Source of the DNA: Yuukianura sp. NJ FZ-2021
Taxonomy: Eukaryota
Direction: 5' to 3'
Assembly (NCBI GenBank): GCA_046563655.1
Contig: JAJCTO010000010.1
Location: 558,001-622,000 of the forward strand
DNA length: 64,000 nucleotides
The notes under the pieces were generated by a model, which was not told the DNA's origin, ran no database searches, and worked only from the letters and a program-made list of their open reading frames with translations. This document shows, piece by piece, positions 36,907-64,000 of this stretch (position 1 is its first letter; every line of letters begins with the position of its first letter). The translations under genes and the position numbers were made by a program.

Positions 36907-37092
36907 ATTGTCCAAAAACCAGTTATTAACGGCCACAAAAGACAAAATCTGTTCAGTTGACGTCTGACTTGCGACCAAGCAACACGAAAACAGTGCAAAA
37001 CATTGTAAAATTTACACCAAAACCCTTAAAAACGTCGTCAGTATCAACTTTGTGCTCGTTGAAGCAACATCTAGTGCATTTTTTGTGTAAAA

Positions 37093-37500: not shown

Positions 37501-37505
37501 TCAGT
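37470..37505 (+). promoter_or_regulatory. TATA plus initiator upstream of the mini-Polinton 2 MCP
   Basis: TATAAAA at 37470 and TCAGT at 37501. Confidence 0.6.
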
Positions 37506-37645
37506 CTGCGTCTGAATTTCGACGAGTAAACACGTGTCTAGTGCGCAGTGCTACCATAAAATTTACGCGTTAAACCTTGGAAATAGTGCTCAGTCGTCAT
37601 TTGGCAACCGTCGGAGCAACATCTCGTGCGTGTTTTTGTGCTAAA

Positions 37646-38969: not shown

Positions 38970-39476
38970 AAATAACTTTATTTTTAATCTTTATTAGCCC
39001 TGTCTCAACTCTTTTTTGTTGTATACTTTTCAAAATTTGAAAAATAAACTAATCTCCTCATTGAAAAAAAAACATGATGTCTTTTATAAATAAAAGTAGA
39101 AAAAAATGAAAAAAAAAACAGAAATTAAAAAAACGAAAAAAAAAAACGAAAAAAAGGACAAAAAAGAAACCAAAAACTGCATTCATGTTTTTGGTTTTCC
39201 ATCAAGTTCATCAAGGTGTTGGCACAAATTGCCGGTTATGTTCTATACGGTTATTCAAAGTCAGGTTCATGCCGTACGTTTTTCTGATAAGACGTTTCCG
39301 TAATTTATTTCAACATAGTTGTGTAAGCGTAAGCTTGCGGGCATACCAGTGACAAACGCCAAGCCTACGTATATATTGTTCCGTAAATGCTTGAGCTACA
39401 TAAAAATTATTTGGAGGCAGATTGAATCGAACTCACGGCCCCTACCATAAGATGTAATCGAAATGGACGCTCTGAC

Positions 39477-40533: not shown

Positions 40534-40746
40534 GTCGTCGTCGTGGTAGTGGTGGTGGCGGTGGGTGGGAGGTGGTGGTTCTGTTTGTGGGAAATTATTC
40601 AGCACACGACTGTAGGCAACCGACAGAAATTTGTACAATTTATTCAGTTGCAAACAGAAAAACTTTTTTTTTTAATGATGTAACTTTGTATATGCAATAA
40701 AAAATCCATTCCTCGTTTCACAATTTTTCACCGTCGAAAAAAAAAT

Positions 40747-44057: not shown

Positions 44058-44934
44058 TGTTGGGGGGTAAACCGATAGTTCATAATGTTAGGCTAATTTT
44101 AGTTTACATTTTTCATGCATTTTCCATTTCCTAGAATAAGGTTATTTTTACTTTAGTGACAGGGATTAGAAACACTCGTTTCTTCCTTTTCTCAACATCT
44201 AAGTTACTCACACTGATTTACATTGTCTTCTCATTCTATTCATTTTTACTATAAGGCTAGGAATACTCATTCCTTCTGCACTTCACTTGTCTTCGTAGGT
44301 TATAAATAGTAGTGACACACAGTCACTTGACATTCATTCTAAGTTCAGTTTTTGAGTTGAATTCCAGTCTTGTAACCGTCTTCTTTCCCATTTCATACAT
44401 TACACATTCAATAAACAACATAACGTAATTCTCGATGTTCTGACTTTTATGTGACTTCACCACAATTCACTTGCTCTCCCACATTTTCTCATCTGAGGTC
44501 ACAGAGCTCATCGAACATTTTGGTGCCGAAAGACGGTTACTGCCAAAAGCCTGGATCCAGACTGACACCACGTCACATTCAACATGCCGGAAGTCCTCTC
44601 TCTCGTCCTTAAGCGAACAGCTCAGAAGCACAAACTGGCGAAAATCCTAAGGGACGTAAGTAACGTCTATTCACCGGCTACTCAGTTTGAACTCCACAAA
44701 CTACTGGATCAAACTAAAAAGATCGAAGGTATTGTCCAATCCCTTCAAAATGAAATTCTAACGTATATGTCTAATGAGGATGATTTAATGCCTCAACTTG
44801 AAGCTTCAGAACACATTGATGACATGATTGTTAAGATCCATGGTCTTATCAATGGAGAGTTAGCGAAGCTGGAATCCAACACCCAGAGTGGATCCCATAG
44901 AGTTACCAAGACAATTCGATTTTTTTTCTTTTAA
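44058..44934 (+). mobile_element. Truncated BEL/Pao-like LTR retrotransposon: LTR 44058-44517, PBS at 44521, gag N-terminus 44584-44934
   Basis: TGTT...AACA ends, TATAAATA at 44301, AATAAA at 44410, PBS TGGTGCCGAAA (tRNA-Phe-like) and a helical gag start LKRTAQKHKLAKI. Confidence 0.75.
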
Positions 44935-45518
44935 CTAGAGTGGACATAAGGCATTTTTTCAACAAAATTTGTGAAGCATTTCTAAAGCGGAAAAAAAACC
45001 GTTTTCATCTTAAGTTTAAGCCAGGTTCACACAAACTATTAATTGCAGGTGTCATTTTTTAAAACTTCGAAAATTATTCGCGAATTCACGACAAAGTTAA
45101 ATCTAGGGTTTTGTTTTTCAGAAAAACTATCAACTATAATCTGTGATTCTGGAAAATGCGACTAGTAGTGGTGTGGACGTAGATAGTAACTATAAGATTA
45201 GTTAATTTAACGTTTAAATTTACTTTAGCTTTGTTGAAGTACTTGAAACTATTTGGAAGTAGGGTAGATTTTATTTTACAGCAGAGTTTAAATTGGAAAA
45301 TTGGAAATACTCTGGATCTAACACTACTGACCTCTGAAAATTACAGTTTTGTTACATACAAGTGTTACGAACAGTAGTTGGATTTAGCTTAACGGTTTCC
45401 TTCTGGCAATGTAATGAAACCTAATCTTACAGTATTGTCTAATGACCAAGCGAAATTTTTATCGAATTTGTAGTTGATTAAGATATTTAAATGTAATTTT
45501 ATTCAAATCATCTGCGCG

Positions 45519-46290
45519 TGTAACGCCGGATTTCGAGCCACCTCCAAATCAATCAATTGATCTGGAGTTGGGCCGAATTCGGACGCTTAATTAAGTTAAG
45601 ACAAAACTAGTTAAAACCAGTTAAGAGACATGTCGAGTATGCAGATTGATAATTAAGGGAAGTTTTGAAATTGAGACAGGAGGTCTCAAGACTTATGATA
45701 AGAAAAAGGTGATTTGACAAGTCCTTTGGACTTGTCATGTAAAACAACTTGCTCAGCAAGTTTGACATCTGTCAAACATGGGGTGTCCACTCGCAAGAGA
45801 GTTGATTCTCCCATTCAAAATCCCTGTTTATCAATTTGCATAGGATCGTAACTTTGTGCAATCTTGGACATTAATGACAAAGCAGGATCATAGATCCTGG
45901 TCATTAACGTCCAACTTTGAACTCAGGTCGCTAAGCGTCCCTCAGTTGAAGGACAAGCTGGGTCAAGAGTAAGGTTATAAATATAAGTAACAACTTGTTA
46001 GCGTTAAGTCATTTTTGAATTAGCTTTTGGGGAAGCATCTCTCTCTCTCTCTCTCAGGTCAGTTTGACTAGATTATAAAGTCGCTCTTTAGAATAAGTCT
46101 TTTGGGGAACAATAAACACTCTTCCTGGGAATTCTCTCCGCCGTTCGTCAATTCTTCATCTTCGAAGCTTGCATATCTGCCACCGTCACTTCCGCTGATT
46201 CTGCTGTTCAGGGTTCTACTGGTGTCAACCGTAGCTGACCAAGGTAAGGGAATCTTCCCTTCTCATACATGATTTAATAAGGGTAGCTAG
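45519..46290 (+). repeat. 5' LTR (minimum extent; 3' end not resolvable)
   Basis: Matches 63238-64000 with scattered substitutions and a CT-repeat indel. TATAAATA at ~45975, AATAAA at ~46110. Confidence 0.92.
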
Positions 46291-48380
46291 ACGAGCATAT
46301 TGAGACACCTAGGTGATGTGGGTCGGGTGGGACCGGCCCCACCTAAAGAGTAGAAGGTAGGGTAGGGAGTGGGACTGAAGTACGGTCCACTCAGGTCATT
46401 GAGCTAACTAGAATCCAGGGACCCAGAGGGGTCAAGTTTTCAGGTCAATTAGGGTGGGACGGGTGTTAAACCCGCTATGCTGTTGCAATTAGCTGTTTGG
46501 TTGTTTTCAGAGGACAATCAAGGGATAGTATTCGTGTTAGGTTAACGTAACAATGGAGTTCAAAAATCACCCTGTTTCAATGGAGGTTCTACTGAGATCC
46601 TTCTGTAAAGTCCCTAGATTCACTTAAGGTCAAGCGAGGTCAACTAGAATAACGTTTAACATAACGTCTAGAGAAAGCAGTTCTTAGAATTTGAAACTCG
46701 CTTTTGGCGGGAAAATTTGAATCTGAAAATTTTTACTATTTGCAAGGGTGGGCCTATAGCCCACAGCCTAAATGGCAAGTCCTCTTTCACATTTCTGAAG
46801 AACTTTTGAAGAATGACTTTTGGCGCGAAAATTTAAATTTTGAAAATTTAAAGTAAGATGTATAGATGAACATCAAGTCTTATCTTCTTGCAGTTCAGTA
46901 GTCAGTTCTAAGCAAAATTTTTAAAGTTTCATGTGTTACATCTAAAGTTTCTCCCATTTTATAATTCTGTTTTTGCGAAAAGCCGAAAATAGTGCAAATT
47001 TTAGCAAACTCATATTTCATAAAATTCTCAGCTGATTTGAATTCATTTCAACGAAGTACAATTGCATAACGTCTGATTAATCCCTGAAGAAGTCATAATA
47101 AGTTAATCAACTACTATACAAGTTTCATTGCATAAAATTGTGAACAGAATTTCGGCGCGAACACTCAAAATTTAAACTAGTAGAATTCACGCATGGACTT
47201 ACATTTCAATTTTATTCAAATGACAAATTCTTGAATTTCGAATTAAGTTTCAATTGAAAATTAAAATTTATCTTTTCATTTAGTGTCTTTTCAAACATAG
47301 ACAGGATTAACGTAAATTCGCATTTAGAAAAAGGCTTTTTGACGTTATGACCTCTCTTGACCTCAACAGTTTTTGGTATAGGAGTAACTATACCCCTACA
47401 ATGTAATCATCCACTGATCTCGCACAAGTTTTTAAGACTGAATTTGAAATAATGACAGAAACCCGTTTAACTTTCTTCTGTTTCTTTCTTCTCAAAGCTT
47501 TCACTTCATAATTAAAGAGTAGAGTGGAAGGGGGGAACCCTTCCCACAGTTAGTCGACACTTAAGTAGAGTGAAGGGAGGAGCCTTCGCTCAATTAGCAA
47601 AGATTTAGAAATGACTTCGTCACGAGGGAGGATAGACCTCGTGACTATGTAGTACTGTTTAAGGACAATAGCTTTAGGTCTGAGTCCTCGTAAGGACTTG
47701 ATGCTTCCCGCCTTTAGGGACAAGTCGGGGTCAAGAGGTAGACCCTTAGCAACTGGTGTATGTTTGACCGGGGTCATGGTATTTGGCGAGAATGCCCCAT
47801 GACTGCTCTTAGTCGAAGGATAATCCGAACGCTTGCGGACGCTGGAGTCGCGACCAGCCGAAACTTGTTATTAGGTAGGACATAAGCTAGAATCTAGACA
47901 ACAGGATACCGCGCTAGGTCCGGAGGTGGCGAAGGTTCCGCCTGAGACCGATGGGCTTAGCATAGTTAAAATCAGGGAAAAGGTCAAGTCTCTGCAGCTG
48001 TTCCTTAGAGCACTAGTGATGCGAAGGGGCGGGGTACCACAGCCCCTCTGAAGAATGGCTTTAGAAATTTTCATAGAGTTGTCGTCAACTCAAGGTCAGA
48101 TCCCAGTCCATGGAGCATCATGCCCGGACCTAGCCAGTCCGATAGGCCATCTATCTCACTGATGATGTCACACAAGTTGACAAATACACCCCATGCTCAA
48201 GGAAGGGAGCATTATTGTAATTTACCTCGAGATTTTGGACTGGGAGGGGACTGAACCTACTGCAGGAGAGCTTGTCAGGGTGTTAGGGACTAGCATTAAG
48301 TAGGCCCTACCTTCATGAAATGAAGGAGGAGTATTAACTCCATACACAACCTTCCAGGAAGAGGAAAACAGCAGAGAAGG

Positions 48381-49760
48381 ATGTCTCTCTACGTTTTGCT
48401 GTTAATTACATTGACGCTGATGGCGGAAGGATCCGTGCTCACGAGAGAGGACGATGGAGCCATCCGATGCTGGGAGGAAGACCCACTTGATAGTCTTAGG
48501 ACAAAGCGTCATGTGTTCAATACGAGGATGTGGAAAACGTTCCAACTAGGATGGACTTTAGAGGACGTACCCTCGGAGATCCGAAAAGCCGACGTCCTTA
48601 CTGATATTAAGCTAGCGTTCCAGAGATGGAATGAGATTTCAAATTTCACATTTATGAATAAGCCAGGTGACTCAACTGCAGAGATCCAAATTAAGTTTGC
48701 TAAGTTTGATCATAACGACTCAAAACCATTTGACGCTGAGCGTGGTATCCTAGGCCATGCCTTCTATCACAGTGAAGGGATAGGAGGAGATGTGCATTTA
48801 GATGCATCTGAAAAATGGGCTACAGGTCACAATGCCTCTGGCATTAACTTATACACCGTAATGTTACACGAAGTAGGTCATGCCCTGGGGCTTGTCCATA
48901 CTTCGGAGAATAGTTCCATCATGTTCCCATGGTATAAGATAAGGGACCCCCAACTAAACTTGAGCATAGTAGACAAACAAGCTCTTGAGCGACTCTACGA
49001 GCAGGCTCACTTGATCCTACAAATCGATGCCGAAAAGAAGGAAGTCCAACAGCAGCTGTACCGAGCCGTGAGTTCAAGACCCATAGAACACGCTTATCAT
49101 TTAAGTAGCATCTACTTCCTATTTCAAGGATTTGGACATTACCAAGTAGAAAGAACTGGGAAACTTAGTTATCCTAGATTTGTTATCAATCATCAATATT
49201 TTCAATATTTTCCTGAAAATATCCGAATCGAGAGGATCTTCCCATTCGATGGACATCTCTACATTTTTGCCAATGGAAAATACTGGAAATACTTCTCCAA
49301 CACCATCTTAGACAAAGGGTACCCAGCTGACACAAGGGAACTAGGAATTTCCACTCCAATTACTGGAGTCATAACGCAGAGACGTACATTGTACTTACAA
49401 GTAAATGGCACATGGCTAGGTTACTACCACTCTCAGGGGAAACTGTTTCCTCAAGATAAAGTTCATAACCCTGTACAGTTGAGTGAGGTGCATGCACCTG
49501 TTGTAAGCATAAATGAGCATCACCTGGGCTTTTATTCTTTAGAACGGAGTCTTATCATGGAATACGATTGGAATTTCCGACTCCACAGATACTATAAGCT
49601 AGCTAAGTTTCTCGGAATTGACTGTGAACCTAGTTCAGGCGATCTGACTGCTGAGGTAGCAGAGATCGGAGCACTTACATGGGCATTTTTCGGTGTCATG
49701 ATAATTTTCTCACTGATAGCAGTGACAATTATCTTTAATTCTATCCATTGTGATGAATAA
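48381..49760 (+). CDS. Membrane-type matrix metalloproteinase (M10A) with hemopexin-like domain, intronless, inside the retroelement
   Basis: Signal peptide; RC...D remnant plus RTKR furin site; HNDSKPFDAERGILGHAF; GGDVHLDASEKW; zinc motif HEVGHALGLVH; Met-turn SIMFPWY; hemopexin-like DGHLYIFANGKYWKY..KGYP; C-terminal transmembrane helix. Confidence 0.93.
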   Translation: MSLYVLLLITLTLMAEGSVLTREDDGAIRCWEEDPLDSLRTKRHVFNTRMWKTFQLGWTLEDVPSEIRKADVLTDIKLAFQRWNEISNFTFMNKPGDSTAEIQIKFAKFDHNDSKPFDAERGILGHAFYHSEGIGGDVHLDASEKWATGHNASGINLYTVMLHEVGHALGLVHTSENSSIMFPWYKIRDPQLNLSIVDKQALERLYEQAHLILQIDAEKKEVQQQLYRAVSSRPIEHAYHLSSIYFLFQGFGHYQVERTGKLSYPRFVINHQYFQYFPENIRIERIFPFDGHLYIFANGKYWKYFSNTILDKGYPADTRELGISTPITGVITQRRTLYLQVNGTWLGYYHSQGKLFPQDKVHNPVQLSEVHAPVVSINEHHLGFYSLERSLIMEYDWNFRLHRYYKLAKFLGIDCEPSSGDLTAEVAEIGALTWAFFGVMIIFSLIAVTIIFNSIHCDE

Positions 49761-49850
49761 AATCCAAGAATTTATTTTCTGGTTTAGGATCTATACCTAA
49801 AGTTGTATGTATATAATTTGCTTAAGGTATTACGCCCGTTTCAAAAGGGC

Positions 49851-50252
49851 ATGAGTACTGGTGATTCCGGATCGGGGAAAAAGAGGGATCGAGGAACACC
49901 AGAATTTTCATTCACTGCATTGGATTCGGTGTTAAAGGACAATCGGTCCAAGTCGAAGTCGCCTAAGAATCGAGAGGAGGAAATTGCTTCAGGCACGCAA
50001 GCAGGGTCCAGCACCAGTCCAACGAATCCAGAGATCAGGGCCATACCGGAGGTAGTGGTTGTCCAACCTCCATCCAACCCAACGATCATAGTGAAGGACG
50101 AGCGTGTGGCAAGGAAAAGCCAGCACACAGCTAAGGCCGCGAAGGCTGACAGGTCAGATCGTCCTATTCTTATTCCAAATCCTACTCAGGAAAGAGGTAG
50201 TCTCCGTAATGACTTAAGTTTGATTTATCCGGCACTATCCAAGGCGACATGA
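49851..50252 (+). CDS. ORF0 upstream of gag (disordered, S/P/K-rich); its stop overlaps the gag ATG (ATGA)
   Basis: ATG at 49851, with an ATGA overlap at 50249-50252. Confidence 0.45.
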   Translation: MSTGDSGSGKKRDRGTPEFSFTALDSVLKDNRSKSKSPKNREEEIASGTQAGSSTSPTNPEIRAIPEVVVVQPPSNPTIIVKDERVARKSQHTAKAAKADRSDRPILIPNPTQERGSLRNDLSLIYPALSKAT

Positions 50253-51368
50253 GTGATCCAAATAATACTGGTGCAGGGGCTCCGGGTGGGAGTACCCCTG
50301 GTCCTGTGGCATTAGTGGCACCAGGTGGAACCGGGAACGTGTTTGTTTCGGTGTGGAACCCACCTGGTGATCCCATCTTCGAAGGAAAACGGGGATCCCA
50401 AGCCACGAATTTCATGCAAACTTTCAAAGCAGTTGCTGCTACGCAACACTGGGATGACACTGCGAAGGTCACCCATTTTCCTCTCTATCTCACCAAGTAC
50501 GCTAAGACTTGGTGGCTGAACTACTGTACAGACTGTAAAAGGGATCCAGCCAACATTGATGACGATGGCGAAGTGTTGCCTTTGTCGTGGCCTAAAATTG
50601 AGGCAGCTTTTAAGTTGGACTTCAAGTCCAGGCTTACCGAAGACGCCCTTGAGCATAAACTTGCTCAAATGCGGCGCGGAAAGAATGGTCCGTATCGAGG
50701 AGTACTGTAGTAACATTATGCGGTTGTGCGATCAGTTAGACAAAAGTCTGGGAACCGTCATGAAGGACGAAAAACGGGTTAAATACTTATTGAAGGGTCT
50801 TGGGCAGGAGGAAAGTCATGAGGTCTTTCTCCGACAGCCCAAGACTCCTAAGGATGTTATTGATTTCTTGATCCAAAAGGAGGACTACGAATTTATGATG
50901 GACAGAAAGAAAGATTCTAGTAGCCAGAAAAGGATGGTAGCTAGGTTCAACGCTATGGGGATCGAGGAAGGTCAAGAAGATTCCAACACCAGCGGAAAGG
51001 ACTCACGTCCTCGCGGGGGTTACCGCGGTAGCTGGAACAGGGGAAATAACCGTGGATACGGTAAAGCCGGACATGGATACTCCCGTGGTGGAGGGGGGTC
51101 CAAGAGGGACGATTCCAACGGTAACCGGGGTAGTGGTTCTCGGAATACACAAGGTTCATCCCGAGGACGTTGGAACAACCGCGGTGGTCGTGGATCAGGG
51201 CGACCCCGTGAAGCCGATAGAAAAACTCATCTTGTTGACGGTACTCCCATAGAATGCTGGACATGTGGAGAGAATCACCGCCGAGTTGACTGTCCAAAAC
51301 ACAACAAACGACCATCGGCAAACGCTACTCCGCCTACTGTTCCGGAAAACTCCACTGCACGTCAGTAG
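50249..51368 (+). pseudogene. gag (capsid plus CCHC nucleocapsid), one frameshift at ~50690
   Basis: PIFEG, W..AKV..FPLYL..AKTWW, SWPKIEAAF, IEEYC, VKYLLKGL, an RG-rich region and CWTCGENHRRVDC. Confidence 0.88.
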
Positions 51369-51400
51369 GGGGAGCTGACGTCATTCTTTCATGTCCCCCT
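51344..51400 (+). other. -1 ribosomal frameshift signal (gag-pol)
   Basis: G_GAA_AAC slippery site in the gag frame, 8-nt spacer, stem ACGTCAG/CTGACGT with loop AGGGGGA complementary to TCCCCCT (51394-51400). The -1 frame is open into pol. Confidence 0.8.
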
Positions 51401-54400
51401 TTTCACCAAAACGAAACATTAAATGAACCAACTATCAATTCCATGCAACTCGATGTTAATGATTCCAAACTCCGAGGAAATTTCATTACCCCAATTTTTA
51501 TTAACGAATCTGGCACACTTTTTCGAAAAACTTGTTTAATTGACAACGGAGCTTCTGTTAGCATCGTTACAAAACATAACGTTGAAACATTTGACAAATT
51601 AAGCCAACCTTTCAAAATAAAATTAGCCAATGACAGCCATGTCAAAATTTTAGGCACTTCCAGAATTAGAGTTCAGTTCACCCGCACCAAGGATGAATTC
51701 TTTGATTGGGATTTCTTTGTCATAGATAAAAGTTTTGTGGATTTCATTATTGGATTAGATTTTCAAGCGGCCAATTTAATGCAGTACCGGCTGCTTAATC
51801 CCAACGGTTTAGCAGAATTCCAATTTCAGGGAATGTGTCACCCTAAACGTCTTAACGTTTTCCCTTCCACAGGAACTAAAACAATTCTGAATTCAGTCAA
51901 GGTGGAAGGAAGTAATTTGTGCAAAAAGAATCATCCATCCACACCTAAAGTCTTGACAGTAGAAGAGGTAGTTCTTCCACCGTTCGCCACCACTCAGGTA
52001 AAAGTATCTCCTGTCAATATGATTAGTGGAACTTTAGCATTTGAACCTAATGGAACTGGACTTGACAAATTGGGCATTTGCATTCCTCATTTAGCCCATA
52101 TTCCAGAAGGGGAATTCCTTATTCCAGTCGATAATCCAAGACCAGTTCCTGTGACACTTTACAGAGGTGTAAATGTCGGATGGATTAGCCGAGTTATAGT
52201 TAGAGATTCGCAACCGGAAGAAGAAATTCGAGCAGCTCGTTTTAAATCAACTCGGGAAAATATAGACTCCATCGATATCAATCCAGAATTAGATCCTGGG
52301 CAGAGACAACAATTGAGAGAACTCATCTTAGAGTACGGAGATGTCTTTGCTTTCAATTTGGACCAGCTAGGGAAAGCTAAGGATGTTAGTTTCCGGATTG
52401 ACACTGGAGATGCACTTCCTGTAAGTTGCCCTCCATACAAGAAATCCCCAGTTGAAAAGAAAATTATAGAAAAGGAAGTCGAAACACTGTTAAATGCGGG
52501 CATTATTCGGGAGAGTCAATCACGTTGGTCCGCAGGAGTCTCTTTAGTAAGAAAACAAAATAGTGACAAGTTTAGAATGTGCGTTGATTGGAGACGCCTC
52601 AAGTGAGCTCTTAGCATCATTCAACGGAGCCAAATATTTTAGCGTAATGGATTTGATGTCAGGTTACTTTCAATTACCCATCCATCCTGACGACGTGGAG
52701 AAAACCAGCTTTGTAACACACACAGGAGCGTATGAATATCTCTTTGTAGGTTTCGGCCTAACAAACGCCCCAGCAGCATTTTCTGCCTTTCTCAAAACAG
52801 TACTGGGTAATCTGCTGCATTCCATTGCCACTGCATACCTAGACGATGTATGTTGTTACAGTAAAGACTTTCCGAGTCATTTGAGCAATCTGAGAAAAGT
52901 TTTTGAACAATTTCGTACATATAATTTGACTCTCCAACCACCAAAATGTCATTTCGGACAGACTAAAATTGAACTCCTAGGTCACATCATTTCAAGGGAA
53001 GGGGTTTCAGTTAATCCAAATAAAGTTAGTGCCATTTCCAAGATGCCTCCTCCTACCAACATCGGGGAGATCCGAACTTTCTTAGGAATGGCGGGATACT
53101 ATAGGAGATTCATTTTGAATTACAGTCTTATAGCAGCTCCACTGACTTCTTTGACTTAGAAAAATGCAGCTTTCAAATGGGATTTAGAACAACAACAAGC
53201 ATTTGACACGCTACGAGAAAAACTAACTTCGGCTCCAATCCTCACATTCTTCAACGAGAATGCAGACTTAGAACTCCATACTGATGCTTCTAACAAGGGT
53301 ATAGGAGCAGTACTCAATCAGCGGGACCCAGATGGCGTCCTGCGAGTAGTAGTTTACGCCAGTCGAACGTATCGTGGCGCCGAGGAACGCTACAACACTA
53401 GCGAGCAGGAAGCTCTAGCTGTTGTTTGGGGTCTGGACAAGTTTAGGGAATTTATAGGCTTCAAGGGCATTACTATTGTCGTAGATCATCATGCACTATG
53501 CTACTTGAAAACATGTAAAAATCTTAGAAACAGTCGTCTTGCTCGTTGGGCCTTGCGACTTCAGGATGTTGTTTATGAAATTAAACACATCAATGGTAAA
53601 AGCCATGTCCAGGCAGACTGTTTAAGCAGATTTCCTATATCTGAACCAGAAGGTGAAAAGAAATTCATCGATGATTTTCCCACTACATGGTATAGTATGC
53701 AGTTAGTAACTCCAGTAGAATATACGGAGAATCTGGCTCAGGAGCAAATGAAAGACAGGAAATTAGAGACTATCATTCAATCTCTCCATGCAGGAAAAAC
53801 TAAATACTGTACATCTTTTGACTATTCCGAGGATCTTTTAAAATTTATTTGCAAACAGACGAAACAATATTTGCCAGTCATACCAGCTCACTTGGTAGAC
53901 TGTGCCATTCCACGTTTCCATGATGATACATTGGCTGGACACCTTGGTATCGCCAGGACTATCGCCAGAATTCGACAAAGTATTTTCTTTTTCAAAATGG
54001 AAAAACGTGTAACGTCATACATTAGACATTGTCCGACGTGTCAACTAAGAAAGTCTAAAAATGTGAAGCCTTACGGCTTCTTGACGCCGATTGACATCAG
54101 CTCTCTTGCTCTGTTTGACAAGTGCAGTATTGATGTCATAGGCCCTCTGAACAGAACCAAGCGAGGGAATCGCTATATTGTTGTCCTAGTTGAATTCGTA
54201 TCGAGATACATTTTTGCTAAAGCAATACCCGAAAATACCACCAAAGAGATGATCTCATTTCTGACTGAGATAATTCAAACCCACGGAGTTTTCAAAACTC
54301 TTCTTTCTGACAATGCTAGTACTTTTCAATCCTCATTCTTTAAAGAGTTCAACAAATTGATTGGGATTACCAATCTGTACTCTACTCCGTATCACAGCAG

Positions 54401-55262
54401 GACCAACGGTTTAGTCGAGCGTACCAACCGAAGCCTCGAGGAGGTACTTACTAATTATGTCTCCAGCACCCAGCGTGATTGGGACAAATATTTAGGGTCT
54501 GCTGTTTACAGCCTAAATACAGCCGTCCATAAGGACAGCTCAGGACTTAGCAGTTACTACATTCTCCATGGACGGAATCCACTACATCCTATGGACGTCG
54601 CTTTGGACACCGTCAAGGACGCCGTTGAAATTCCGACGCGTATCCAACGCATGGAAGCAGCACGGAAAGCTGCACAAGCTGGACTTCGGAAAGCCCAGGC
54701 AAGGCAGGCGAGGTTGTTCGACCCGGGTCGCCAACCCTTCGAATTTAAGGTCGGTGACCTAGTACTCCTTAAAGTACATAAAACAAAACCAGGGATAAGC
54801 CGCAAACTCGCCATGCGGTTTAAAGGCCCCTACATCGTGATTGGGAGGAAATCCTCTCTCTCTTATTATTGTCGGTTGCGGGACGCAGATCCCGACTCTA
54901 AGCTCACTCGAGTCCACATTGAGAACATGAAAGCGTTTCATGAATCCGACATGTCGTACGTAACAACGGCTGCTTCAGGAGTAGCAGCAGATCAAGTTGG
55001 GGAAGGGCATGATAAGCCCACACCCGGAATTTTTTTCGACCTCCCGGTCACAGAAAAAGAGATTAGTGAAACTGTCAACGATGACGCCGAGGTTGACTCT
55101 GAGGTCGACAGTGACGTCGGCCAAGTATCAACTGATGAGGACATTTCCTCAGAAGAAGAAGAAATTAGTAAGGCCAACGTGGCCGACGAAAAAGCAAAAG
55201 AACCCGAGATAGTGACGCGCTCAGGAAGAGTTGTCAGAAAGCCTGTGAGGTTCTTGTCATAA
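51344..55262 (+). pseudogene. pol (protease, RT, RNase H, integrase), with a deletion/frameshift at ~52603 and a TAG at 53157
   Basis: LIDNGAS; RMCVDWR, DLMSGYFQ, FGLTNAP, YLDD; TDASNKGIGA, EQEALA, DHHAL; GHLG..RT, CPTCQ, IDVIGP, SDNA, GLVERTN and FKGPY. Confidence 0.93.
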
Positions 55263-55385
55263 GACGCACCACTAATTAACTACTCATATAGGATTATGGA
55301 GGCGGGAAATTAGGTAGTTAAGGTAGTTAAGTGGTAGGACAGCTTCAGAATATTTAGGAACTTTTCATTCCCCTAGAAAAGAAAA

Positions 55386-57542
55386 ATGGCGGCGATCTAC
55401 GCCTCAATAACTCTTCTTCTACTCACCCCTGTCGCTGCATACGAAATAATACCAAAACAAGTACGAGTGACCACTGGAGCCTTAATCCGAGAGGTCAAGA
55501 ACGTAGAGTTGTACTCATCAAGCGTCCCCTTGATCTATGATGTCATGGCAAATTTCTCGGAATTACCAAAGGGCATCCTAACCCCCAAACGTTGCCAATC
55601 AGGACAAAACTGCGTGTTTCCGCTCGCGATGCGACCGTATGTTGAACATGTCACCGATGTGATGCAAAAGATAATCGAGGACTTAATGATGAGTCCATCC
55701 AAAACCACGACCCGGCAGAAACGTTTCAGCATAGACGACTACAACCCGTTGACATGGATTGGTGACCTTTACTCCATATGCTGTGGCGTAGCTTCTAAAC
55801 GAGATCTGAAGGAATATCAAGTCGATTCTCAGAAGGTACAACAATTCATGGAATCAATCAAAAGAGCTGTGGTCACTTCAGACCAAAACATAATCACAGT
55901 AAAGGATAGTTACGAGTTGTTTCGAAGTAACATCTCCAGGTTCATGAATCGTATTCATGACAACATCCAAACGTTGTACGCTGAGCAGTTGAACGTTACT
56001 ATTCTTGAAACGCAGCTGGAACAACGCGTTGAAGAAGCATTCGAAGAATTGGACTTCCAACGAAGAGGATTTGTTCAAATCTACAACCACATAAACGCCA
56101 TCACCGAGATCATCCGATTCAAAGATCTCCAAGACCACTGTAGGTCCCAGACAATCCCTTTGTTAGCAATCCAACCGAAGAAGCTGCAAAGAGACTTGAG
56201 AAGTATCAGGAGGCTCATCAACAAGGATGGTTACGATCTTGTTGTCCCAGAGACCGAAATCTCTAAGTACTACAAACTAAAGATCGCAGATTGTGTCACA
56301 ACTACCGAAGGGAGAATTATCTTCCAACTACGCATTCCAATCAGAAAAACTGAAGATGATTGGCAACTACATGAGATGGTCAATATTCCCTTCAGCTATC
56401 GGGGAAGCACATGTATCATCCAGCACGCCCCAACTTACTTAGCTACAAGTAAGAATAACCTGGTAACAATCCAAGGAACCCAACTCCACCAATGTCAACC
56501 GGACACAGGACTCTGTAAAATCCCGAACTTCAACTCCGATCCGTTATCCGGGTACCTTTGCGCACAAAGGTTGTTGCGAGGAGCTAGCGTTCAAGAGCTC
56601 AACCAGGTCTGTTTATTCGAGTGCCTCGCGGATCAAAACGAATTCGCGATAACACAGTTGGACTATCATACATTCATTCTGACCGGTGCTCCCGAAGGGA
56701 TGGCCGTACATTGTGGAACAGAAGATGCCGACCGAATCTATCCACTGAGAGTCCCCGCTGACGGTATCGGAAGTATCGAAGTACAGTTGCCATGCGATTG
56801 TCAACTAGTCATCCCAGGAAGAATGCCAGTCCGACCACCTTATCCTTGTCCAACAGGACCTATCACCTACCCTAAGGTTAATATAGTCATACCAGCGATG
56901 ATGTCAAAGGTCGATTTGTTACTAAAGGCAACAGAATCTCGAGACTCAAAGGAGTCCACCATTTTTCCTAGCATCGAGTCCGTCTTCAACGAGACATGGG
57001 AGTTAGACTCTCCAAAACTAAACCTCACGGAGGTCACGCAGCTAAAGACACTGATTGTTCCCCAATTGGTAGCCAAAATGGCCCCATCAAGCAACACTGC
57101 ACTAATAATATGGAACGTTCTGATGAGCCTAGTGTTAGCTTTTCTCTTCTACCGTGAAATCAGCCGGCATGGAGGTTACATGCTAGGTTTTCCTATGTTA
57201 GGAGGACAGTTCGGCCAGGCCCAAGCAACTGCCGAAGTCCACGAACACCATGCCTGGAACTTAGGAATCACTCTACTATTAATTTTGGTCTTCGTGGTAT
57301 TTTTTATGTTTGGATACGCATACGCGATCTATATGCGACGCAAGAGCGGCCGAAATTGGCCAAGCGGTGAGATCAGGGCAGATGGAACTGACCTCGACCA
57401 ATTTGAGAAAGGAGGACGAACCTCATTCCATTCACCACTCAAAATCCAGGTCGTCCAGGCGATGGACACCATTCAGGAGGAAGAAGAGGAAAGAGTTACT
57501 TCCGACAGTGACAGCGCTTCGGAAGAACAGGAGGAATTGTAA
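55386..57542 (+). CDS. env-like class I fusion glycoprotein (baculovirus F/errantivirus-like), intact
   Basis: Signal peptide, RQKR furin site followed by a hydrophobic fusion-peptide-like segment, heptad region, Cys-rich ectodomain with N-glycan sequons, and C-terminal hydrophobic helices. Confidence 0.85.
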   Translation: MAAIYASITLLLLTPVAAYEIIPKQVRVTTGALIREVKNVELYSSSVPLIYDVMANFSELPKGILTPKRCQSGQNCVFPLAMRPYVEHVTDVMQKIIEDLMMSPSKTTTRQKRFSIDDYNPLTWIGDLYSICCGVASKRDLKEYQVDSQKVQQFMESIKRAVVTSDQNIITVKDSYELFRSNISRFMNRIHDNIQTLYAEQLNVTILETQLEQRVEEAFEELDFQRRGFVQIYNHINAITEIIRFKDLQDHCRSQTIPLLAIQPKKLQRDLRSIRRLINKDGYDLVVPETEISKYYKLKIADCVTTTEGRIIFQLRIPIRKTEDDWQLHEMVNIPFSYRGSTCIIQHAPTYLATSKNNLVTIQGTQLHQCQPDTGLCKIPNFNSDPLSGYLCAQRLLRGASVQELNQVCLFECLADQNEFAITQLDYHTFILTGAPEGMAVHCGTEDADRIYPLRVPADGIGSIEVQLPCDCQLVIPGRMPVRPPYPCPTGPITYPKVNIVIPAMMSKVDLLLKATESRDSKESTIFPSIESVFNETWELDSPKLNLTEVTQLKTLIVPQLVAKMAPSSNTALIIWNVLMSLVLAFLFYREISRHGGYMLGFPMLGGQFGQAQATAEVHEHHAWNLGITLLLILVFVVFFMFGYAYAIYMRRKSGRNWPSGEIRADGTDLDQFEKGGRTSFHSPLKIQVVQAMDTIQEEEEERVTSDSDSASEEQEEL

Positions 57543-57930
57543 TTTTCCTCACAAGAAAAGATAGTAATAGTGATTAGCATTAGTTAAGCTGTTAAAATTA
57601 ACAATACCTAATTACTAAAACCTGATAAAAAGTTCAACACTAGTTCATAAGTACACTGAATTTCACCAAATGCGGGAGCTACAATGATAGACATTCAACC
57701 GATAAATTTTCAAAAAATAATTATAACTACCAGAAAATATAACTAGGTGTTTTAAGCCATGCGCAAGAAGATGTGGTAGTATTCTGGATAGGAATGTTTT
57801 ACATGCCGCTGTAGTTTAACTGGAAAATAACTATCGTAATCCCTAGCTCACAAGGAAGTTAGCCTAATTAACAATTAGTAAGAAGAATCAAAAACTTTAG
57901 TAAACGAGTTAGGAACTCTATTACGTTTAG

Positions 57931-58200
57931 ATGCCGCGTAGCTGTACTTGGTGTGGCCGGCCGAATTCCGGTGGAAAACCAAGAACGCGTTTGTTAAAAC
58001 CCGACTCGTTAAACCAGGAACTCCGTATTCCAATGGAACACTTCTGGATGGAGTTCTGCGGAGGATGCCAGAAGAAGGCAATGTGCGAACTTGAGGAAGG
58101 AGACACCCTTCGATTTTACATGGACTATCGCGTCAACCCAAGTTGCGCACTTTCCGCGTCTTACAAAGACAAACCTTTAAAATATAACCCAAAGAAATAA
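57931..58200 (+). CDS. Small CxxC...CxxC putative zinc-binding accessory protein
   Basis: CTWC and CGGC motifs in an ATG-initiated 89-aa ORF. Confidence 0.45.
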   Translation: MPRSCTWCGRPNSGGKPRTRLLKPDSLNQELRIPMEHFWMEFCGGCQKKAMCELEEGDTLRFYMDYRVNPSCALSASYKDKPLKYNPKK

Positions 58201-58339
58201 GCATACAAGCAGCGCATCTATTTTGAAGATTAGTAGATAGTACTCAGGAGTAGCAGGCTAGAATAGTAAAATAAATAGAACTTTGTAAAACAATAGACTA
58301 AAAACACGTCATTTTCAGAATTCAGAATTCTAAAAACTC

Positions 58340-59143
58340 ATGTCAGTGAACGGACTTCACAACCTGCCAGCTGGATTCATAGACGCAGTTCGAGAAAGAA
58401 ACCAACCAAATCAGCGGTACGAGAGAGCGAGATTTCTCGCCTCGAGGAGTGTAATCGAGCTGGGTCTCCTCAAAGACTGTTTTCCCGAACTAAAGGAACT
58501 GATAGACAGCTTGGTCAAGACTACTAAACTCGCGTGGAAACCACTGATCAACAAGCTAGAAATCTGGATTTGGGAAGATCCACGCTCTACTTATAGGTAC
58601 CAGCTGACTCACTGCAGACACGAGCTAATCTGCAGATTCGCCCAGATTAGAATCGATCGATTCCCGCTAACTCTTGTGTCATTCGTCCGACACTGTGAAG
58701 GAATACTTGATCTTGGGATCAAGACAGACGAGTTCCTGCGACTTGGCTTACAGGAAAAGCTCGAACTAACTCACTTCACCACCATACACATCACTCGTCA
58801 GCCAGGAGCTCCACTAACCGATTTCCGGACCGACAGTCTGATATTAGCTGTAACTCGACGACCCTACCGACCATACTGCTTCCGAGACTTGGCCGACATC
58901 CTTCACTGCAACGGAGGACGGAGGGAAGAAGTAAAGTACTTCTTCAGCCTTTACGAAACAGAGAAAATCATCTACTGGAGCACACTGTCCGAACGCCAAG
59001 TCCAACGCCGAGAGAAGACAAAGGAGACTCAGGAACGCAGAGGGTTGAGTACAGACGACCAACTCATCGACGAAATTTGTGTCGCAGGCGACGCTTACGC
59101 CGAGACTTGTGACGACTACTTGGAGTCAGATAAGGAAAACTAG
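58340..59143 (+). CDS. Accessory protein of unknown family ('ORF-X1'), paralog of 60623-61357
   Basis: Shares FP.L..F, PY.F..LA, RE..., IY and RRGL..D...D blocks with ORF-X2. Confidence 0.7.
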   Translation: MSVNGLHNLPAGFIDAVRERNQPNQRYERARFLASRSVIELGLLKDCFPELKELIDSLVKTTKLAWKPLINKLEIWIWEDPRSTYRYQLTHCRHELICRFAQIRIDRFPLTLVSFVRHCEGILDLGIKTDEFLRLGLQEKLELTHFTTIHITRQPGAPLTDFRTDSLILAVTRRPYRPYCFRDLADILHCNGGRREEVKYFFSLYETEKIIYWSTLSERQVQRREKTKETQERRGLSTDDQLIDEICVAGDAYAETCDDYLESDKEN

Positions 59144-59166
59144 TTTCATTTCATTTTCCTTTCAAA

Positions 59167-59742
59167 ATGGCTTACTTTGAGCCCATAGAGTTCACTTTAC
59201 ACTCTCCAGACGCCAAGGCACCTCACTGGGGGGAAGCCCATGAGGCTGGCCTTACTATTTACACTTCCGCAGATTATGACATTTCGCCAGGAGACCGTTG
59301 TGTTGTTTCCACCGGAATCGCCTTGCGCATTCCGTTAGGACTTTTCGGAAGAATAACTTCTATTTACAGACATACGCTTAGTCATGGAATAACCGTTGCC
59401 CCAGAGGTCATGGAAGGGGGTACAATATCAGGCATTTGCAAAATAACGATTTTCAACCATGGCAAGAAATCTTTCCACCTAAGAAAAGGTGATGCAATTG
59501 CGCAGGTCACGTGCGAAAAATTCTACAAACCGGAGATCAAGGACAAACCCTTAGGGTTTTACTACCACGCTGAAGACGATGACAAATGGCATATTAACTA
59601 TCAAGCAAATGAGGTCTTTCTTCGTCAGCCGAAAACTCCTCAAGATGTCGTTGACATTCTCATTCAAAAAGAAGACTACCAATTTATGATGAACAGGAAG
59701 CAGGACTCCACTTCCCTTCGACAACCGCTGCTCCAGGAGTAG
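59167..59742 (+). CDS. dUTPase-fold protein with degenerate catalytic motifs, fused to a gag-derived segment
   Basis: SPDAKAP, AGLTIY, VSTGIALRIP.G.FGRI, IFNHG..F..KGDAIAQ. The AGxD, RSG and GxID motifs are lost. Confidence 0.8.
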   Translation: MAYFEPIEFTLHSPDAKAPHWGEAHEAGLTIYTSADYDISPGDRCVVSTGIALRIPLGLFGRITSIYRHTLSHGITVAPEVMEGGTISGICKITIFNHGKKSFHLRKGDAIAQVTCEKFYKPEIKDKPLGFYYHAEDDDKWHINYQANEVFLRQPKTPQDVVDILIQKEDYQFMMNRKQDSTSLRQPLLQE

Positions 59743-60622
59743 CAGCAGACGAAGTTGGGGAAGGCACTCACGTTGTGAGTTGGCAACCAATAATTTTTTT
59801 TTTGAGAAGTTATAAGTGTGTGATAAAAGTAGATAGTTTCGAGACGCAATCATTCGAATGGTGGTAATACCACATACTGAATTAAAATAACTAACAAGGC
59901 CACTGATAATAAGCCTTTGGTTTTCCGAGTTCAAAATTACATAAGCAATAGAAATCGAAATTTGGTGCATTAATCTTAGTTCGAATTTTTAAAAATTTAA
60001 ACTAATGGTGATACTGTTGACATAAGATTGGCCATAGACATTAGGGTCACCAGAATGAAGTACCTCGACTCCAGTCAAGAACTGAATCACTGATGTTTAG
60101 TTTACTGTTTTCTTTTATGAAGGCATTTCTTAAAGCAACTGCGTTTAGCATTCATTTAAGCATAGGAAACCACTGATATGGTAGGAATTTGAGTTTATTG
60201 TCATCGCCTAGTTATACTCAACTATTATACACAGTCATCAGTCATCAGTCGCCTACTGTTCCACTTACATCATCATTAGAAACTAGCGTGAACAAAACAC
60301 ACACTGCTGTTTACATGTGTTAGGTTTGATAGAATTACAATGAATTTTTGGTTACGCGTAACTGACGCAAACTTAGCCGAATGCTTAGGAGGAGATATAT
60401 CAAACATGTTCGACTACGTTAGGTTAGGAACAGAGAAATGGTCAGAAAGAAATCAAAAGTAGTCGTGTAAATTCAAAAACTATTAATCATATTTGTCAGA
60501 AACATAACGATTTTAGGTTATCAAGGAAATCTCGCTTGAGAATTTATCCAGACGACTTCCAGTGCTGGCGCGTGCGATTGCCAACTCGCGTATCAGAAAC
60601 CGAGCCTGGAGAATACTAAAAT

Positions 60623-61357
60623 TTGGAACCATCCAGGAGAATATACAGCCACGATCACATGAGCTGCGTTACGCAGAAACCTGGAGCCATCCAACTAAAC
60701 GAGTTACCAGAGCTTGCACTAGGTAAGATTTTCCAGTTCTGCTGTCTACAGGACATAAGCAACATCACGGAGGTTTTTCCAAGTCTATTAACGTTTGTAG
60801 AAGCAACAAAAAGAGAAGTTCGCGCAAAACAAAAATTTATATTTGATAACGTTGTTGTACTAAAACCAGGATATAATATTGGGATACTAAAAGTTGATCA
60901 TGATAGTCAAACTAAAATAGAAAACTTCCTATCAAACGTACCACTTAACGCATTTCCTGTCGCGCTAAGCCAATTTATCTTAGACTTCAATCAACCCATT
61001 CAACTTCACTGGCAAGCTGTAGTAACCTTCTCTCCAGAAGAATTAGAAAAAGTATTGCGCAAATTTAGAGACGAGTTTTATAGTTTCCGAGAATACTGTA
61101 CGTTTGTTCCGATCGGTCCAAGACCAAAACCATACCGTTTTCAAACGTTAGCTAAACAAATCCGTCTTTACACAAACGACAGAGAGGACCTAGCGTCTCA
61201 TTTAGAAAAGATATATGCTGAGGAACTTCCGATTTACTTAGCTGGATTCACTGTCGCTCAACGCAGAGCACGAAAACGCGCTAGGAGACATTATATACGG
61301 CGTGGATTGGAAGTAACGGACGAGTGGCTAGATATTGCACTCTGGGAATTCCTTTAA
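60623..61357 (+). CDS. Accessory protein ORF-X2 with an N-terminal F-box-like motif
   Basis: LNELPELALGKIFQFCCLQDISNITEV matches the F-box pattern LxxLPxxxLxxIFxxLxxxDLxxxxxV. First ATG is at ~60659. Confidence 0.65.
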   Translation: MEPSRRIYSHDHMSCVTQKPGAIQLNELPELALGKIFQFCCLQDISNITEVFPSLLTFVEATKREVRAKQKFIFDNVVVLKPGYNIGILKVDHDSQTKIENFLSNVPLNAFPVALSQFILDFNQPIQLHWQAVVTFSPEELEKVLRKFRDEFYSFREYCTFVPIGPRPKPYRFQTLAKQIRLYTNDREDLASHLEKIYAEELPIYLAGFTVAQRRARKRARRHYIRRGLEVTDEWLDIALWEFL

Positions 61358-61396
61358 AAACAAAGGGAGAAGCGATTTCAGTAAATAACATCGAGA

Positions 61397-62281
61397 ATGC
61401 TGAAATACAAGCGACATTCATGGGCAGCGTTGCCTTTACGAAAAACTTCCGCAACTTTGCCAGGATTCACGTTTTCATGCCCCTTTGATACTACACTTCC
61501 AGCTAAAGGGCAAGCAGTCATAAATACATTCATTCAAGTAGAAGTTCCGGAAGGAACTTTTGGTTGCATTGTCCCTTCCCAACAGTTAGGTAATTTAATT
61601 AACGTAAAAATGGAATTTATCGGACAGGAGCGTTGTGAGCCTATACAAATTACATTATTTTCCCATGACATTGAGGACCGCGTTATAAAACGAGGTCAAG
61701 GAATTGCCGAAATTGTTTGTCAAAATTATCAGGAATTTGAGTTTGAGGAAGTTCAGGAACTTCCGAGGACAAAGGAAATTGTCCCACGTCCAACATGTGC
61801 CGAGAAGGTTTGGTTTGGAATAATCAAATCTAATCTCCTCATCATTCCTTCTAGTTCGCGCACTAGAAGATCTTTTACCCCAAGGCCAATCGACTTCGGC
61901 CAAAGCAAACGTATAATTTTCCCAGAAGGAAAATTATTTCCAGTTTTGCAGTACATTGAGAAATTAGGAGATCGGCGTCAGAACCAAATCGCGATCCGGA
62001 AAAACTTTTTCATACAATTAAATACAAAAGACATCGAAGACATTTGTCTACACTATCAAATATATCCACCCAGTTATTATTTCAAATACAAGGATATGAT
62101 TTGTATTGACTTACTCGAATGTGAGGCTAAATCGTCGTTTCGATTATTGGCCAAGACACTCGAAGGTTATCGAAATCATGGTTTACCAATTCGAGAAGAA
62201 TTGATCAACCATGTTAAAAACAAATCCAGAGAGGATTACGAACTACGACCTCGAAGTAATCTGTTTCCACATAACTATTAA
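61397..62281 (+). CDS. Second degenerate dUTPase-fold protein with a C-terminal ORF-X-like domain
   Basis: T.IQVEVPEGTFGCI, LFSH...IKRGQGIAEIVC...EEVQELPRT. The tail SFRLLAKTL...REELINH resembles RFQTLAKQI...REDLASH. Confidence 0.75.
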   Translation: MLKYKRHSWAALPLRKTSATLPGFTFSCPFDTTLPAKGQAVINTFIQVEVPEGTFGCIVPSQQLGNLINVKMEFIGQERCEPIQITLFSHDIEDRVIKRGQGIAEIVCQNYQEFEFEEVQELPRTKEIVPRPTCAEKVWFGIIKSNLLIIPSSSRTRRSFTPRPIDFGQSKRIIFPEGKLFPVLQYIEKLGDRRQNQIAIRKNFFIQLNTKDIEDICLHYQIYPPSYYFKYKDMICIDLLECEAKSSFRLLAKTLEGYRNHGLPIREELINHVKNKSREDYELRPRSNLFPHNY

Positions 62282-63237
62282 CTCACTTAGAAGTATGTCC
62301 TCTAAGAGTAGTGTTACTAAAATTTGTAATCATAAGTTGATAATAAGCTGTCAAAATTAATTATAATGCATATTCACAAACTTAACCATAAGAGAATAAA
62401 AGAGAAGAATGAAGATCCGATACATCCCATTCACGTGTTCCAGTCTGGACGTACCAGTCGAGTCTGATTTGCAACATCATCGTCCTATTGGGCGCTGGAG
62501 TACGACGTAGCTTTGATCGAGTTCGAACTCCTGTGAGCAAAAGGTCAATAATGCTGCGCTACGCAACTAAGTCTAATTGAAACTTGATCAACTCTCACCT
62601 CCCTGAAGTACATTGAACGACGGTTATCAATTGAACACGGACGACCACAGTCCTCAGGACAGTCCAGGGAGCCAAGCAACTCAACGAGAGTTTACGGGAG
62701 ATGTACATGAGCAGTAAAGACGACTCAACTCCCCGTCGCAGTAGCTATCGCGGAAACTACAACGACTCCACTGAGAATTACGAATGAAGATTCGGAGCGG
62801 CACAGACAAGTTAGAAACCGAAAGGTGAAAGCCCGCAACACATGATGACACCACCGTACGAGACCAATGGCTGGCGAGCTACGCATCCATTCAGAATTTA
62901 GCTCCATCACAGAATACTGTCCGGCGGAATCCGCATAACGGTGTACTCAGAAATAGCAGACCCAATGTCTCCAAGCACCCATTGGAATTCTTTAAATTCT
63001 GTAAGCTAGCTTTCACTCATGATGTTAGTCTTAAATCAACCTTGGCTATTGTTACATCAATATTATACTATGTCAAATTCGGGTAGAACAGTTCTATGTT
63101 ATCCATTTATGAGTTCAGGCCTCAAATCCATGACATCAAATTTGTAGATCGGAACACCATAAAACATTATGTTAGGATACTCTGTTATACAATAAGGAAA
63201 TCTACGAGGACGTAGATTAGTACAAGTTGGGGAATAA

Positions 63238-64000
63238 TGTAACGCCGGATTTCGAGCCACCTCCAAATCAATCAATTGATTTGGAGTTGGGCCGAATTCG
63301 GACGCTTAATTAAGTTAAGACAAAACTAGTTAAAACCGGGTAAGAGACATGTCGAGTATGCAGATTGATAATTAAGGAAAGTTTTGAAATTGAGACAGGA
63401 GGTCTCAAGACTTTTGATAAGAAAAAGGTGATTTGACAAGTCCTTTGGACTTGTCATGTAAAACAACTTGCTCAGCAAGTTTGACATCTGTCAAACATGG
63501 GGTGTCCACTCGCAAGAGAGTTGATTCTCCCATTCAAAATCCCTGTTTATCAATTTGCATAGGATCGTAACTTAGTTCAATCTTGGACTTTAATGACAGA
63601 ACAGGATCATAGATCCTGGTCATTAACGTCCAACTTTGAACTCAGGTCGCTAAGCGTCCCTCAGTTGAAGGACAAGCTGGGTCAAGAGTAAGGTTATAAA
63701 TATAAGTAACAACTTGTTAGCGTTAAGTCATTTTTGAATTAGCTTTTGGGGAAGCATCTCTCTCTTAGATCAGTTGACTAGATTGTAAAGTTGCTCTTTA
63801 GAATAAGTCTTTTTGGGAACAATAAACACTCTTCCTGGGAATTCTCTCCACCGATCGTCAATTCCTCGTCTTCGAAGCTTGCACATCTGCCACCGTCACT
63901 TCCGCTGATTCTGCTGTTCAGGGTTCAACTGGTGTCAACCGTAACTGACCAAGGTAATTGAATCTTCCCTTCTCATACATGATTTAATAAGGGTAGCTAG
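63238..64000 (+). repeat. 3' LTR, truncated by the window end
   Basis: Direct repeat of 45519-46290, preceded by AAGTTGGGGAATAA (PPT-like). Confidence 0.92.

Follow-up and report, generated by a model that had tools for sequence, protein, structure and literature searches.

The stretch of DNA analysed here, referred to as the window, comprises 64,000 nucleotides of Yuukianura sp. NJ FZ-2021 (assembly GCA_046563655.1, contig JAJCTO010000010.1, positions 558,001 to 622,000 of the forward strand). Near its 3' end lie four open reading frames (ORFs), two members of a gene family named ORF-X (X1 and X2) and two frames with a dUTPase-like domain (dUT1 and dUT2). All four sit inside one long terminal repeat (LTR) element, an env-carrying Ty3/gypsy element of 18.8 kb that extends from position 45519 to 289 nt beyond the window end. 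An earlier note on this DNA had described them as an accessory cassette of ORF-X and pseudo-dUTPase that was duplicated after env, with all four ORFs open. The order X1, dUT1, X2, dUT2 and the open frames were confirmed, but dUT1 is no natural ORF, and the apparent duplication is the joining, at position 59609, of two element families that each carry one cassette.

X1 (58340..59143, +; stop-to-stop frame 58334-59143) is the family A member of ORF-X and has a degenerate F-box-like N-terminus; its ratio of nonsynonymous to synonymous substitution (dN/dS) against family A2 is 0.06. In the chimeric dUT1 (59167..59742, +; frame 59134-59742) a family A pseudo-dUTPase is cut before its C-terminal domain, named domain Y, and fused to gag and integrase scraps of family B. 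The A-to-B recombination junction is a 6-nt microhomology, ATGAGG (59609..59614, +), and the gag and integrase scraps form the deletion scar of a family B derivative (59609..59764, +). X2 (60659..61357, +; frame 60620-61357) is the family B ORF-X, in which a probable F-box at about 60677-60829 is followed by an alpha/beta domain that resembles no known fold clearly, and dUT2 (61397..62281, +; frame 61385-62281) consists of a pseudo-dUTPase domain (about amino acids 5-120) and domain Y (about 61796-62227).

The LTRs of the element are of the family B type and 96.4% identical to each other, with CGCG directly outside both ends. The 5' LTR (45519..46579, +; about 1060 nt) starts and ends with TG...CA and is 94-95% identical to the family B element on contig C13, compared with 74-86%, over partial matches, to family A; the 3' LTR (63238..64000, +) continues for 289 nt beyond the window. 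With these LTRs, the short target-site copy and the order protease (PR)-reverse transcriptase (RT)-RNase H (RH)-integrase (IN) in pol, the element is a Ty3/gypsy element. Downstream of the leader (46580..48018, +) and ahead of gag lies an intronless matrix metalloproteinase (MMP) gene (48324..49760, +; Pfam Peptidase_M10, E 4e-43) encoding a matrixin domain, a hemopexin domain and a C-terminal hydrophobic segment. Its frame looks intact and membrane-type, it occupies the same spot in all six families (A, A2, B, C, D and E), and its dN/dS between families A and B is 0.16. Gag and pol (49788..55262, +) are of the family A type (91-99% identical to the copy on C5); in the window copy their reading frame shifts near 50520-50710 and 52551-52606, and a stop interrupts it at 53157-53159. 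The env-like ORF (55377..57542, +; 721 amino acids) shows, at the sequence level, a signal-like N-terminus, an RQKR site and C-terminal hydrophobic segments; it gave no Pfam match and no significant match to PDB sequences. Pyrimidine-rich AG sites upstream of env and X1 are candidate splice acceptor-like sites only. By eye, three insertions are nested here, with the LTR element inside a small inverted-repeat element (window 44585-45518; L011:2290-3460) that itself lies in a Pao/BEL-like gag.

Conservation of the cassette and decay of the dUTPase

A single cassette of X, dUTPase with domain Y and usually a third gene, Z, is kept in five element families (A, A2, B, C and D) and in two metagenome contigs. 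X, dUT+Y and Z are all present in families A, C and D. In family A2, X and dUT+Y are present, and Z was not observed up to a following long interspersed nuclear element (LINE)-like insertion; family B lacks Z, and neither tblastn nor blastn found a remnant of it in the 3' region of the window. Family E carries Z without X and dUT at the five loci examined, and family D has four X paralogs, three between pol and env (L054:7327-9937(+), L055:2938-3876(+)) and the fourth after env. The two metagenome contigs, L104 and L105, are short and have the order X-dUT-Z, neither of them reaching pol or env. Gene Z, which comes last in families A, C, D and E (L012:8311-9771(-), L008:3-1337(-), L055:4882-6480(+), L083:1436-2716(-)), encodes an Rrp6-like protein (profile E 6e-11) in which the ExoI and ExoII catalytic aspartates are replaced, indicating an inactive nuclease. 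The dN/dS was 0.10-0.18 in all seven within-family pairs (X or the whole of dUT+Y) and 0.06-0.09 for X between families. Weighing against the between-family values, those of the dUTPase domain included, dS between families is near saturation (1.3-2.8, and undefined in 4 of 12 pairs), so that the ratios are rough. It is concluded that X, dUTPase+Y and Z are the natural accessory block of the clade and are under purifying selection.

The dUTPase fold proposed in the earlier note could be established for both frames. Pfam dUTPase (PF00692) was passed by dUT1 and dUT2 with E 4.7e-14 and 9.8e-10, and the dUT2 model aligned to human dUTPase with a Z-score of 14.8 (root-mean-square deviation (rmsd) 2.6, 111 residues aligned). 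The closest solved sequences are the human, shrimp and fly enzymes, all of them animal cellular dUTPases, and the host has an intact dUTPase gene of its own, with introns, at C5:10.25 Mb. A search with dUT2 against 5.8 billion proteins gave no match at E 0.001, and scans of IMG/VR with the dUT alignment and with env gave no loci.

Motif sites were compared with the canonical dUTPase motifs, including those given in the earlier note. None of the five motifs is fully intact in dUT1 or dUT2, as had been claimed, and the full set is not intact in families A2 and C either. In family A (dUT1) the sites read AGLTI, ITSIYRH, EVMEGGTISG and GDAIAQ, the last being nearest to intact, and in dUT2 PGFTF, IVP-SQ, EFIGQERCE and GQGIAE; motif 5 is absent from both. 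Catalysis requires the aspartate of motif 3 and the loop of motif 5, as stated in a passage of PMC4531489. Because both are lost, the sequences of dUT1 and dUT2 indicate that the two proteins are very likely catalytically inactive.

The relatives form a graded series. All five motifs are intact in the dUTPases of L104 and L105, motifs 1-4 are nearly intact and motif 5 is degenerate in family D, and most motifs are lost in families A, A2, B and C, where the replacements in A/A2 differ from those in B/C. Very long branches lead to A/A2 and to B/C in the tree. The free tree parts these two groups, and a single clade is not rejected (approximately unbiased test, p-AU 0.077), which is compatible with one or with two losses of catalysis. 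In this clade an intact dUTPase of ancestor-like type thus decayed into a fold that lacks the motifs. Intact motifs in other copies had been named beforehand as a sign of simple decay; they were indeed found in L104 and L105, but simple decay is disfavoured because the motif-less domain is itself under purifying selection. The earlier note had proposed a dN/dS comparison among element copies. The dN/dS of the dUTPase domain alone was 0.11-0.12 (A vs A2) and 0.20 (B vs C), with pN/pS intervals of up to 0.54, and that of domain Y was 0.13 (B vs C). Motif loss is therefore not neutral decay, and the reading of the dUTPase-like frames as pseudoenzymes is upheld.

This reading had been made with adenovirus E4-ORF1 in mind, a dUTPase-derived protein with a non-enzymatic role, which carries a C-terminal PDZ-binding motif on a dUTPase-only chain. 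E4-ORF1 appeared at rank 44 in a fold search. The C-terminal ends found here (FPHNY in dUT2, GWVDY in family A) follow the extra domain Y and, by eye, do not form a PDZ-binding motif of the E4-ORF1 type.

Domain Y is conserved in all six aligned dUT+Y sequences. Among longer proteins the Y profile matched solely the known L104 protein, and an Atlas search with Y gave no usable match. The C-terminus of dUT2 had been described as a third ORF-X-like domain, and the predicted order of helices and strands in Y does parallel that of the C-terminal part of X. When trimmed profiles were used, residues 126-153 of X2 aligned with the matching stretch of Y at E 0.004-0.005 and outscored every one of 200 and every one of 60 column shuffles. 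On the other side, BLASTP between X and Y gave E 0.11, the full-profile hhalign probability was 0.6%, and the homology reached a profile probability of only 7-9%, which speaks against a common origin. That Y is a third ORF-X-like domain is plausible, with the chances about evenly balanced.

Beyond the cassette, several other elements were observed. An ORF of the Rrp6/RNase D type, with motifs intact by eye, follows pol in another gypsy family (L082:2884-4119(+), C12:192884). In a gypsy element nested in a family A copy (L091:1295-8223(-), C10:929295-936223), pol is followed by four cysteine-rich ORFs in tandem that resemble glycoproteins and look gB-like by eye. In the window itself, the regions 1081-11662, 22032-25926 and 34477-40537 contain ORFs resembling DNA polymerase B and capsid genes as well as long inverted repeats (up to 592 nt, 100% identical), which by eye suggest Polinton-like and foldback elements.

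ORF-X as a probable F-box protein

A direct comparison of X1 and X2 gave only E 4e-4 and 23% identity, but with leave-family-out profiles (E 7e-26 and 2e-9) the two are homologous, as the earlier note had expected. Neither has a Pfam match. The X profile found five matches among 1.84 billion representative proteins, of which four are credible and one is a leucine-rich repeat (LRR) chance match; none is named, and two were traced to L104 and L105. Against PDB sequences the best match of the profile, at E 0.05, was unrelated.

The X2 model has a predicted local distance difference test (pLDDT) score of 83 and helices at residues 31-38, 43-52 and 54-77. In a fold search against 48,161 chains the top four of the 50 matches were F-box entries (Z 5.3, 5.1, 5.0 and 4.9), with rmsd values of 2.2-6.0 over 43-68 aligned residues and alignments that began at X2 residues 20-23. 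Of the 50 rows, 15 named an F-box protein or a Skp1 complex, counting cyclin F, an F-box protein. The top Atlas matches of ORF-X were likewise F-box clusters (score 0.94, with the family common to 10 of 10). Docking of X2 residues 16-105 to a stand-in animal Skp1 reached 0.55, compared with 0.06 for the best control, with at least 64% of contacts shared between runs and a partner pLDDT of at least 55. The docking mark was reached by 51 of 78 solved pairs and by 2 of 108 mismatched microbial pairs; its range at or below 0.60 holds only 5 of the 78 solved pairs and all 4 passing mismatches of 180. The docking lends weak support. As a separate observation, the host genome has four Skp1 paralogs (L100-L103).

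Several results weigh against an F-box. All fold Z-scores of X2 are below 8, the caution level of the tool, and Foldseek of the X2 model against PDB and BFVD returned nothing at E 0.001. The Atlas match has 150 shared features, where 170 are typical of true members. The Pfam F-box cut-off of 20.5 bits was missed by the N-terminus of X2 (12.8 bits) and by P0005 (at most 14.1), and no Pfam F-box match was found in eight other N-terminal segments or in P0003. X1 lacks a clear LP-helix motif, its version being degenerate. Furthermore, the docking was run with a stand-in Skp1 and without alignments, and complexes of Skp1 with F-box proteins are already solved, so that it may pass by memory or likeness. 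Taking the fold search, Atlas and the Skp1 docking together, the modelling nevertheless indicates that ORF-X is likely an F-box protein. For its C-terminal domain, Foldseek against PDB and BFVD gave no significant match to viral F-box adaptors.

The evidence on both genes also bears on the alternative that the dUTPase is a decaying passenger held in frame by the Y domain behind it and that X is an unrelated helical adaptor. Constraint is indeed weaker on the dUTPase domain than on Y when both are compared within one pair (pN/pS 0.32 vs 0.15 and 0.42 vs 0.29), very long branches lead to A/A2 and B/C, family E does without X and dUT, and the F-box evidence stays below threshold in each single test. 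However, the bootstrap intervals of pN/pS for the dUTPase domain do not exceed 0.54 even with near-saturated synonymous sites, the fold is confidently retained, and fold search, Atlas and docking all indicate an F-box or Skp1. A passenger dUTPase beside a non-F-box X is therefore considered unlikely, and a selected pseudo-dUTPase with an F-box-type X is preferred.

Origin of the doubled cassette

Identity to the family A and family B elements was determined in 500-nt tiles along the window element. The tiles of the leader resemble both families (92-98% to A, 87-96% to B). From 48019 family A alone is matched, and 48019-59618 is 91-99% identical to the family A element on C5. From 59609 onward the element is 93-97% identical to the family B element on C13, with one tile at 75%, and family A is not matched again before the LTR region. 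A first, homologous crossover from B to A thus lies inside the leader, its exact place not being fixed, and the second, from A to B, at ATGAGG, which is common to the family A dUT gene and family B gag. In a DNA search of the genome with 58300-62400, close copies covered either the first 1319 bases or base 1310 onward, and both only in the window itself. Of the matches to 59450-59800, 1 of 13 crosses the junction, again the window itself; these match counts are lower bounds.

The family B element on C13 lacks pol and env, and its gag runs into a 44-nt integrase scrap that is followed by X and dUT. In the window, the gag scrap (59609-59708) is 78% identical to 50818-50917 and the integrase scrap (59721-59764) is 91% identical to 54963-55006. 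The same deletion scar recurs at C13:270558-270749 and C8:6080923-6081114. Because the join falls inside the dUT gene, leading from family A dUT into family B gag, dUT1 is chimeric and truncated: family A supplies the first ~160 codons, and the last ~42 come from the gag scrap, from a short linker and from the beginning of the integrase scrap. The natural family A dUT gene, in contrast, has 317 codons and the same C-terminal domain Y as dUT2.

Two dUT genes in one element were found in none of the eight other elements with X and dUT that were examined (A on C5 and C10, A2 on C10, B on C13, C on C9 and C10, D on C8 and C5); in the family D element on C5 the dUT frame is broken. A second X-dUT pair at C10:961 kb was considered as a tandem cassette and rejected, as it is the 3' part of an A2 element split by a nested A insertion with the target-site copy GAAC.

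It is concluded that one integrated copy, the element in the window, combines by recombination a family A element (MMP-gag-pol-env-X-dUT+Y-Z) with a family B derivative that has lost pol and env (MMP-gag'-X-dUT+Y). The doubled cassette is accordingly a one-copy recombinant and no feature of the lineage, and carries little weight in itself. The simplest cause would be two template switches of reverse transcriptase in a particle with both RNAs, the switch points being the ATGAGG microhomology and the leader that the two families have in common.

An assembly mis-join, or gene conversion after insertion, would instead leave the mosaic without a recombinant reverse transcript. The mosaic is known from a single copy, and the identical sequence would result from two crossovers into a family B copy already in place. 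A mis-join is opposed by the matching B-type LTRs, the 4-nt target-site copy and the continuous flanks, an inverted-repeat element in Pao-like gag; against conversion, a short non-homologous join such as the 6-nt one found here is better explained by template switching. Either origin is thus quite improbable compared with recombination during reverse transcription. A tandem duplication of the X and pseudo-dUTPase cassette at the level of the lineage, kept as a two-cassette system, is very improbable: the window does carry two cassettes with open frames and X alone has multiplied to four paralogs in family D, so that expansion occurs in the clade, but each half of the doubled block is 93-99% identical to a different single-cassette family, dUT1 is cut and fused to gag at a junction found once, and the pair at C10:961 kb belongs to a separate element split by a nested insertion.

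The family B derivative without pol and env at C13:266073-276049(-) has LTRs that are 99.8% identical, the target-site copy AATA and open MMP, X and dUT frames; it is a recently moved, non-autonomous element that retains the accessory genes. In a further deleted family B-like copy at L006:1250-2170(+) (C4:10065195), the MMP N-terminus is joined in frame with the distal portion of dUT+Y (307 codons open).

Proposed function and comparison with known systems

Overall, the best explanation, and a reasonably probable one, is a recombinant element with a conserved cassette under selection, in which X would act as an adaptor and the pseudo-dUTPase as a scaffold. The N-terminal F-box of X would likely bind host Skp1, and the C-terminal domain would bring a host protein to the Skp1-cullin-F-box (SCF) ligase for degradation, in the manner of viral F-box proteins. 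The targets may be anti-retroelement factors, a suggestion that is offered tentatively. For the dead dUTPase, a putative role as a trimer that displays three copies of Y, and thus as a multivalent binder and not an enzyme, has a chance somewhat below even; Y would here be a probable distant copy of the C-terminal domain of X. Z would probably bind RNA.

A more speculative and rather doubtful extension is that an invertebrate Ty3/gypsy clade independently became a 'complex retrovirus'. It would encode F-box proteins (X, in four paralogs in one family) as SCF adaptors of its own, through which host restriction or small-RNA factors are degraded. Its pseudo-dUTPase would form trimers and present the binding domain found in X as a decoy, its pseudo-Rrp6 would bind RNA, and a membrane metalloproteinase would be encoded as well; the modules would be swapped between families by recombination, and a deleted element with accessory genes only would move in trans. 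If X is an F-box adaptor, its substrate would name a host factor that restricts an env-carrying gypsy element, and counter-defence encoded by retrotransposons against animal genome defence is barely known. The clade moreover contains natural dUTPases at successive grades between the intact enzyme and the pseudoenzyme, along with matched relatives, which is useful for the study of pseudoenzyme origin. Judged from listings of the open-licence literature, no paper on a gypsy element with an accessory gene of the F-box or pseudo-dUTPase type, or on the X-dUT-Z cassette, was found.

The layout LTR-gag-pol-env, the PR-RT-RH-IN order and the env-like ORF with a furin-type site resemble those of metazoan errantiviruses, the env-carrying Ty3/gypsy elements described by Chary & Hayashi (PMC13524379). 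The window element is assigned to Ty3/gypsy by structure and would function like a complex retrovirus, and its env is env-like by the RQKR site and hydrophobic segments. X, dUT and Z genes are not mentioned in the main text or seven supplementary files of that survey.

Viral F-box adaptors, namely polerovirus P0, nanovirus CLINK and poxvirus PRANC, are like X in combining a divergent F-box with an unrelated substrate-binding part in a small viral protein, and according to the review PMC3588083 they recruit SCF and deliver host proteins or are proposed to do so. The main text of that review has no occurrence of 'retrovir' or 'retrotranspos'. Inactive dUTPase derivatives that keep the fold without the catalytic motifs, with known or presumed non-enzymatic roles, are described in passages on the beta- and gammaherpesvirus proteins UL72, UL31 and ORF11 (PMC8961515) and on the dUTPase-like peptide of bovine immunodeficiency virus (BIV; PMC4531489). 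Unlike these, the dUTPases studied here have animal cellular proteins as closest solved relatives, are fused to Y, and occur in intact and degenerate forms within one clade.

The nearest printed case is that of the bdelloid rotifer elements Juno, Vesta and TelKA (Rodriguez et al., PMC5408684), LTR elements of invertebrates that carry a dUTPase domain and, as ORF3, a DEDDy exonuclease. Their dUTPase is part of pol, placed between PR and RT, and their exonuclease is reported with intact residues; in the present clade, by contrast, dUTPase and exonuclease are separate genes after env that have lost their motifs and stand beside X and MMP. To this the probable F-box assignment of ORF-X, the decay series of the dUTPase and the mosaic are added, and the cassette is a new form of virus-like accessory genes in a retroelement.

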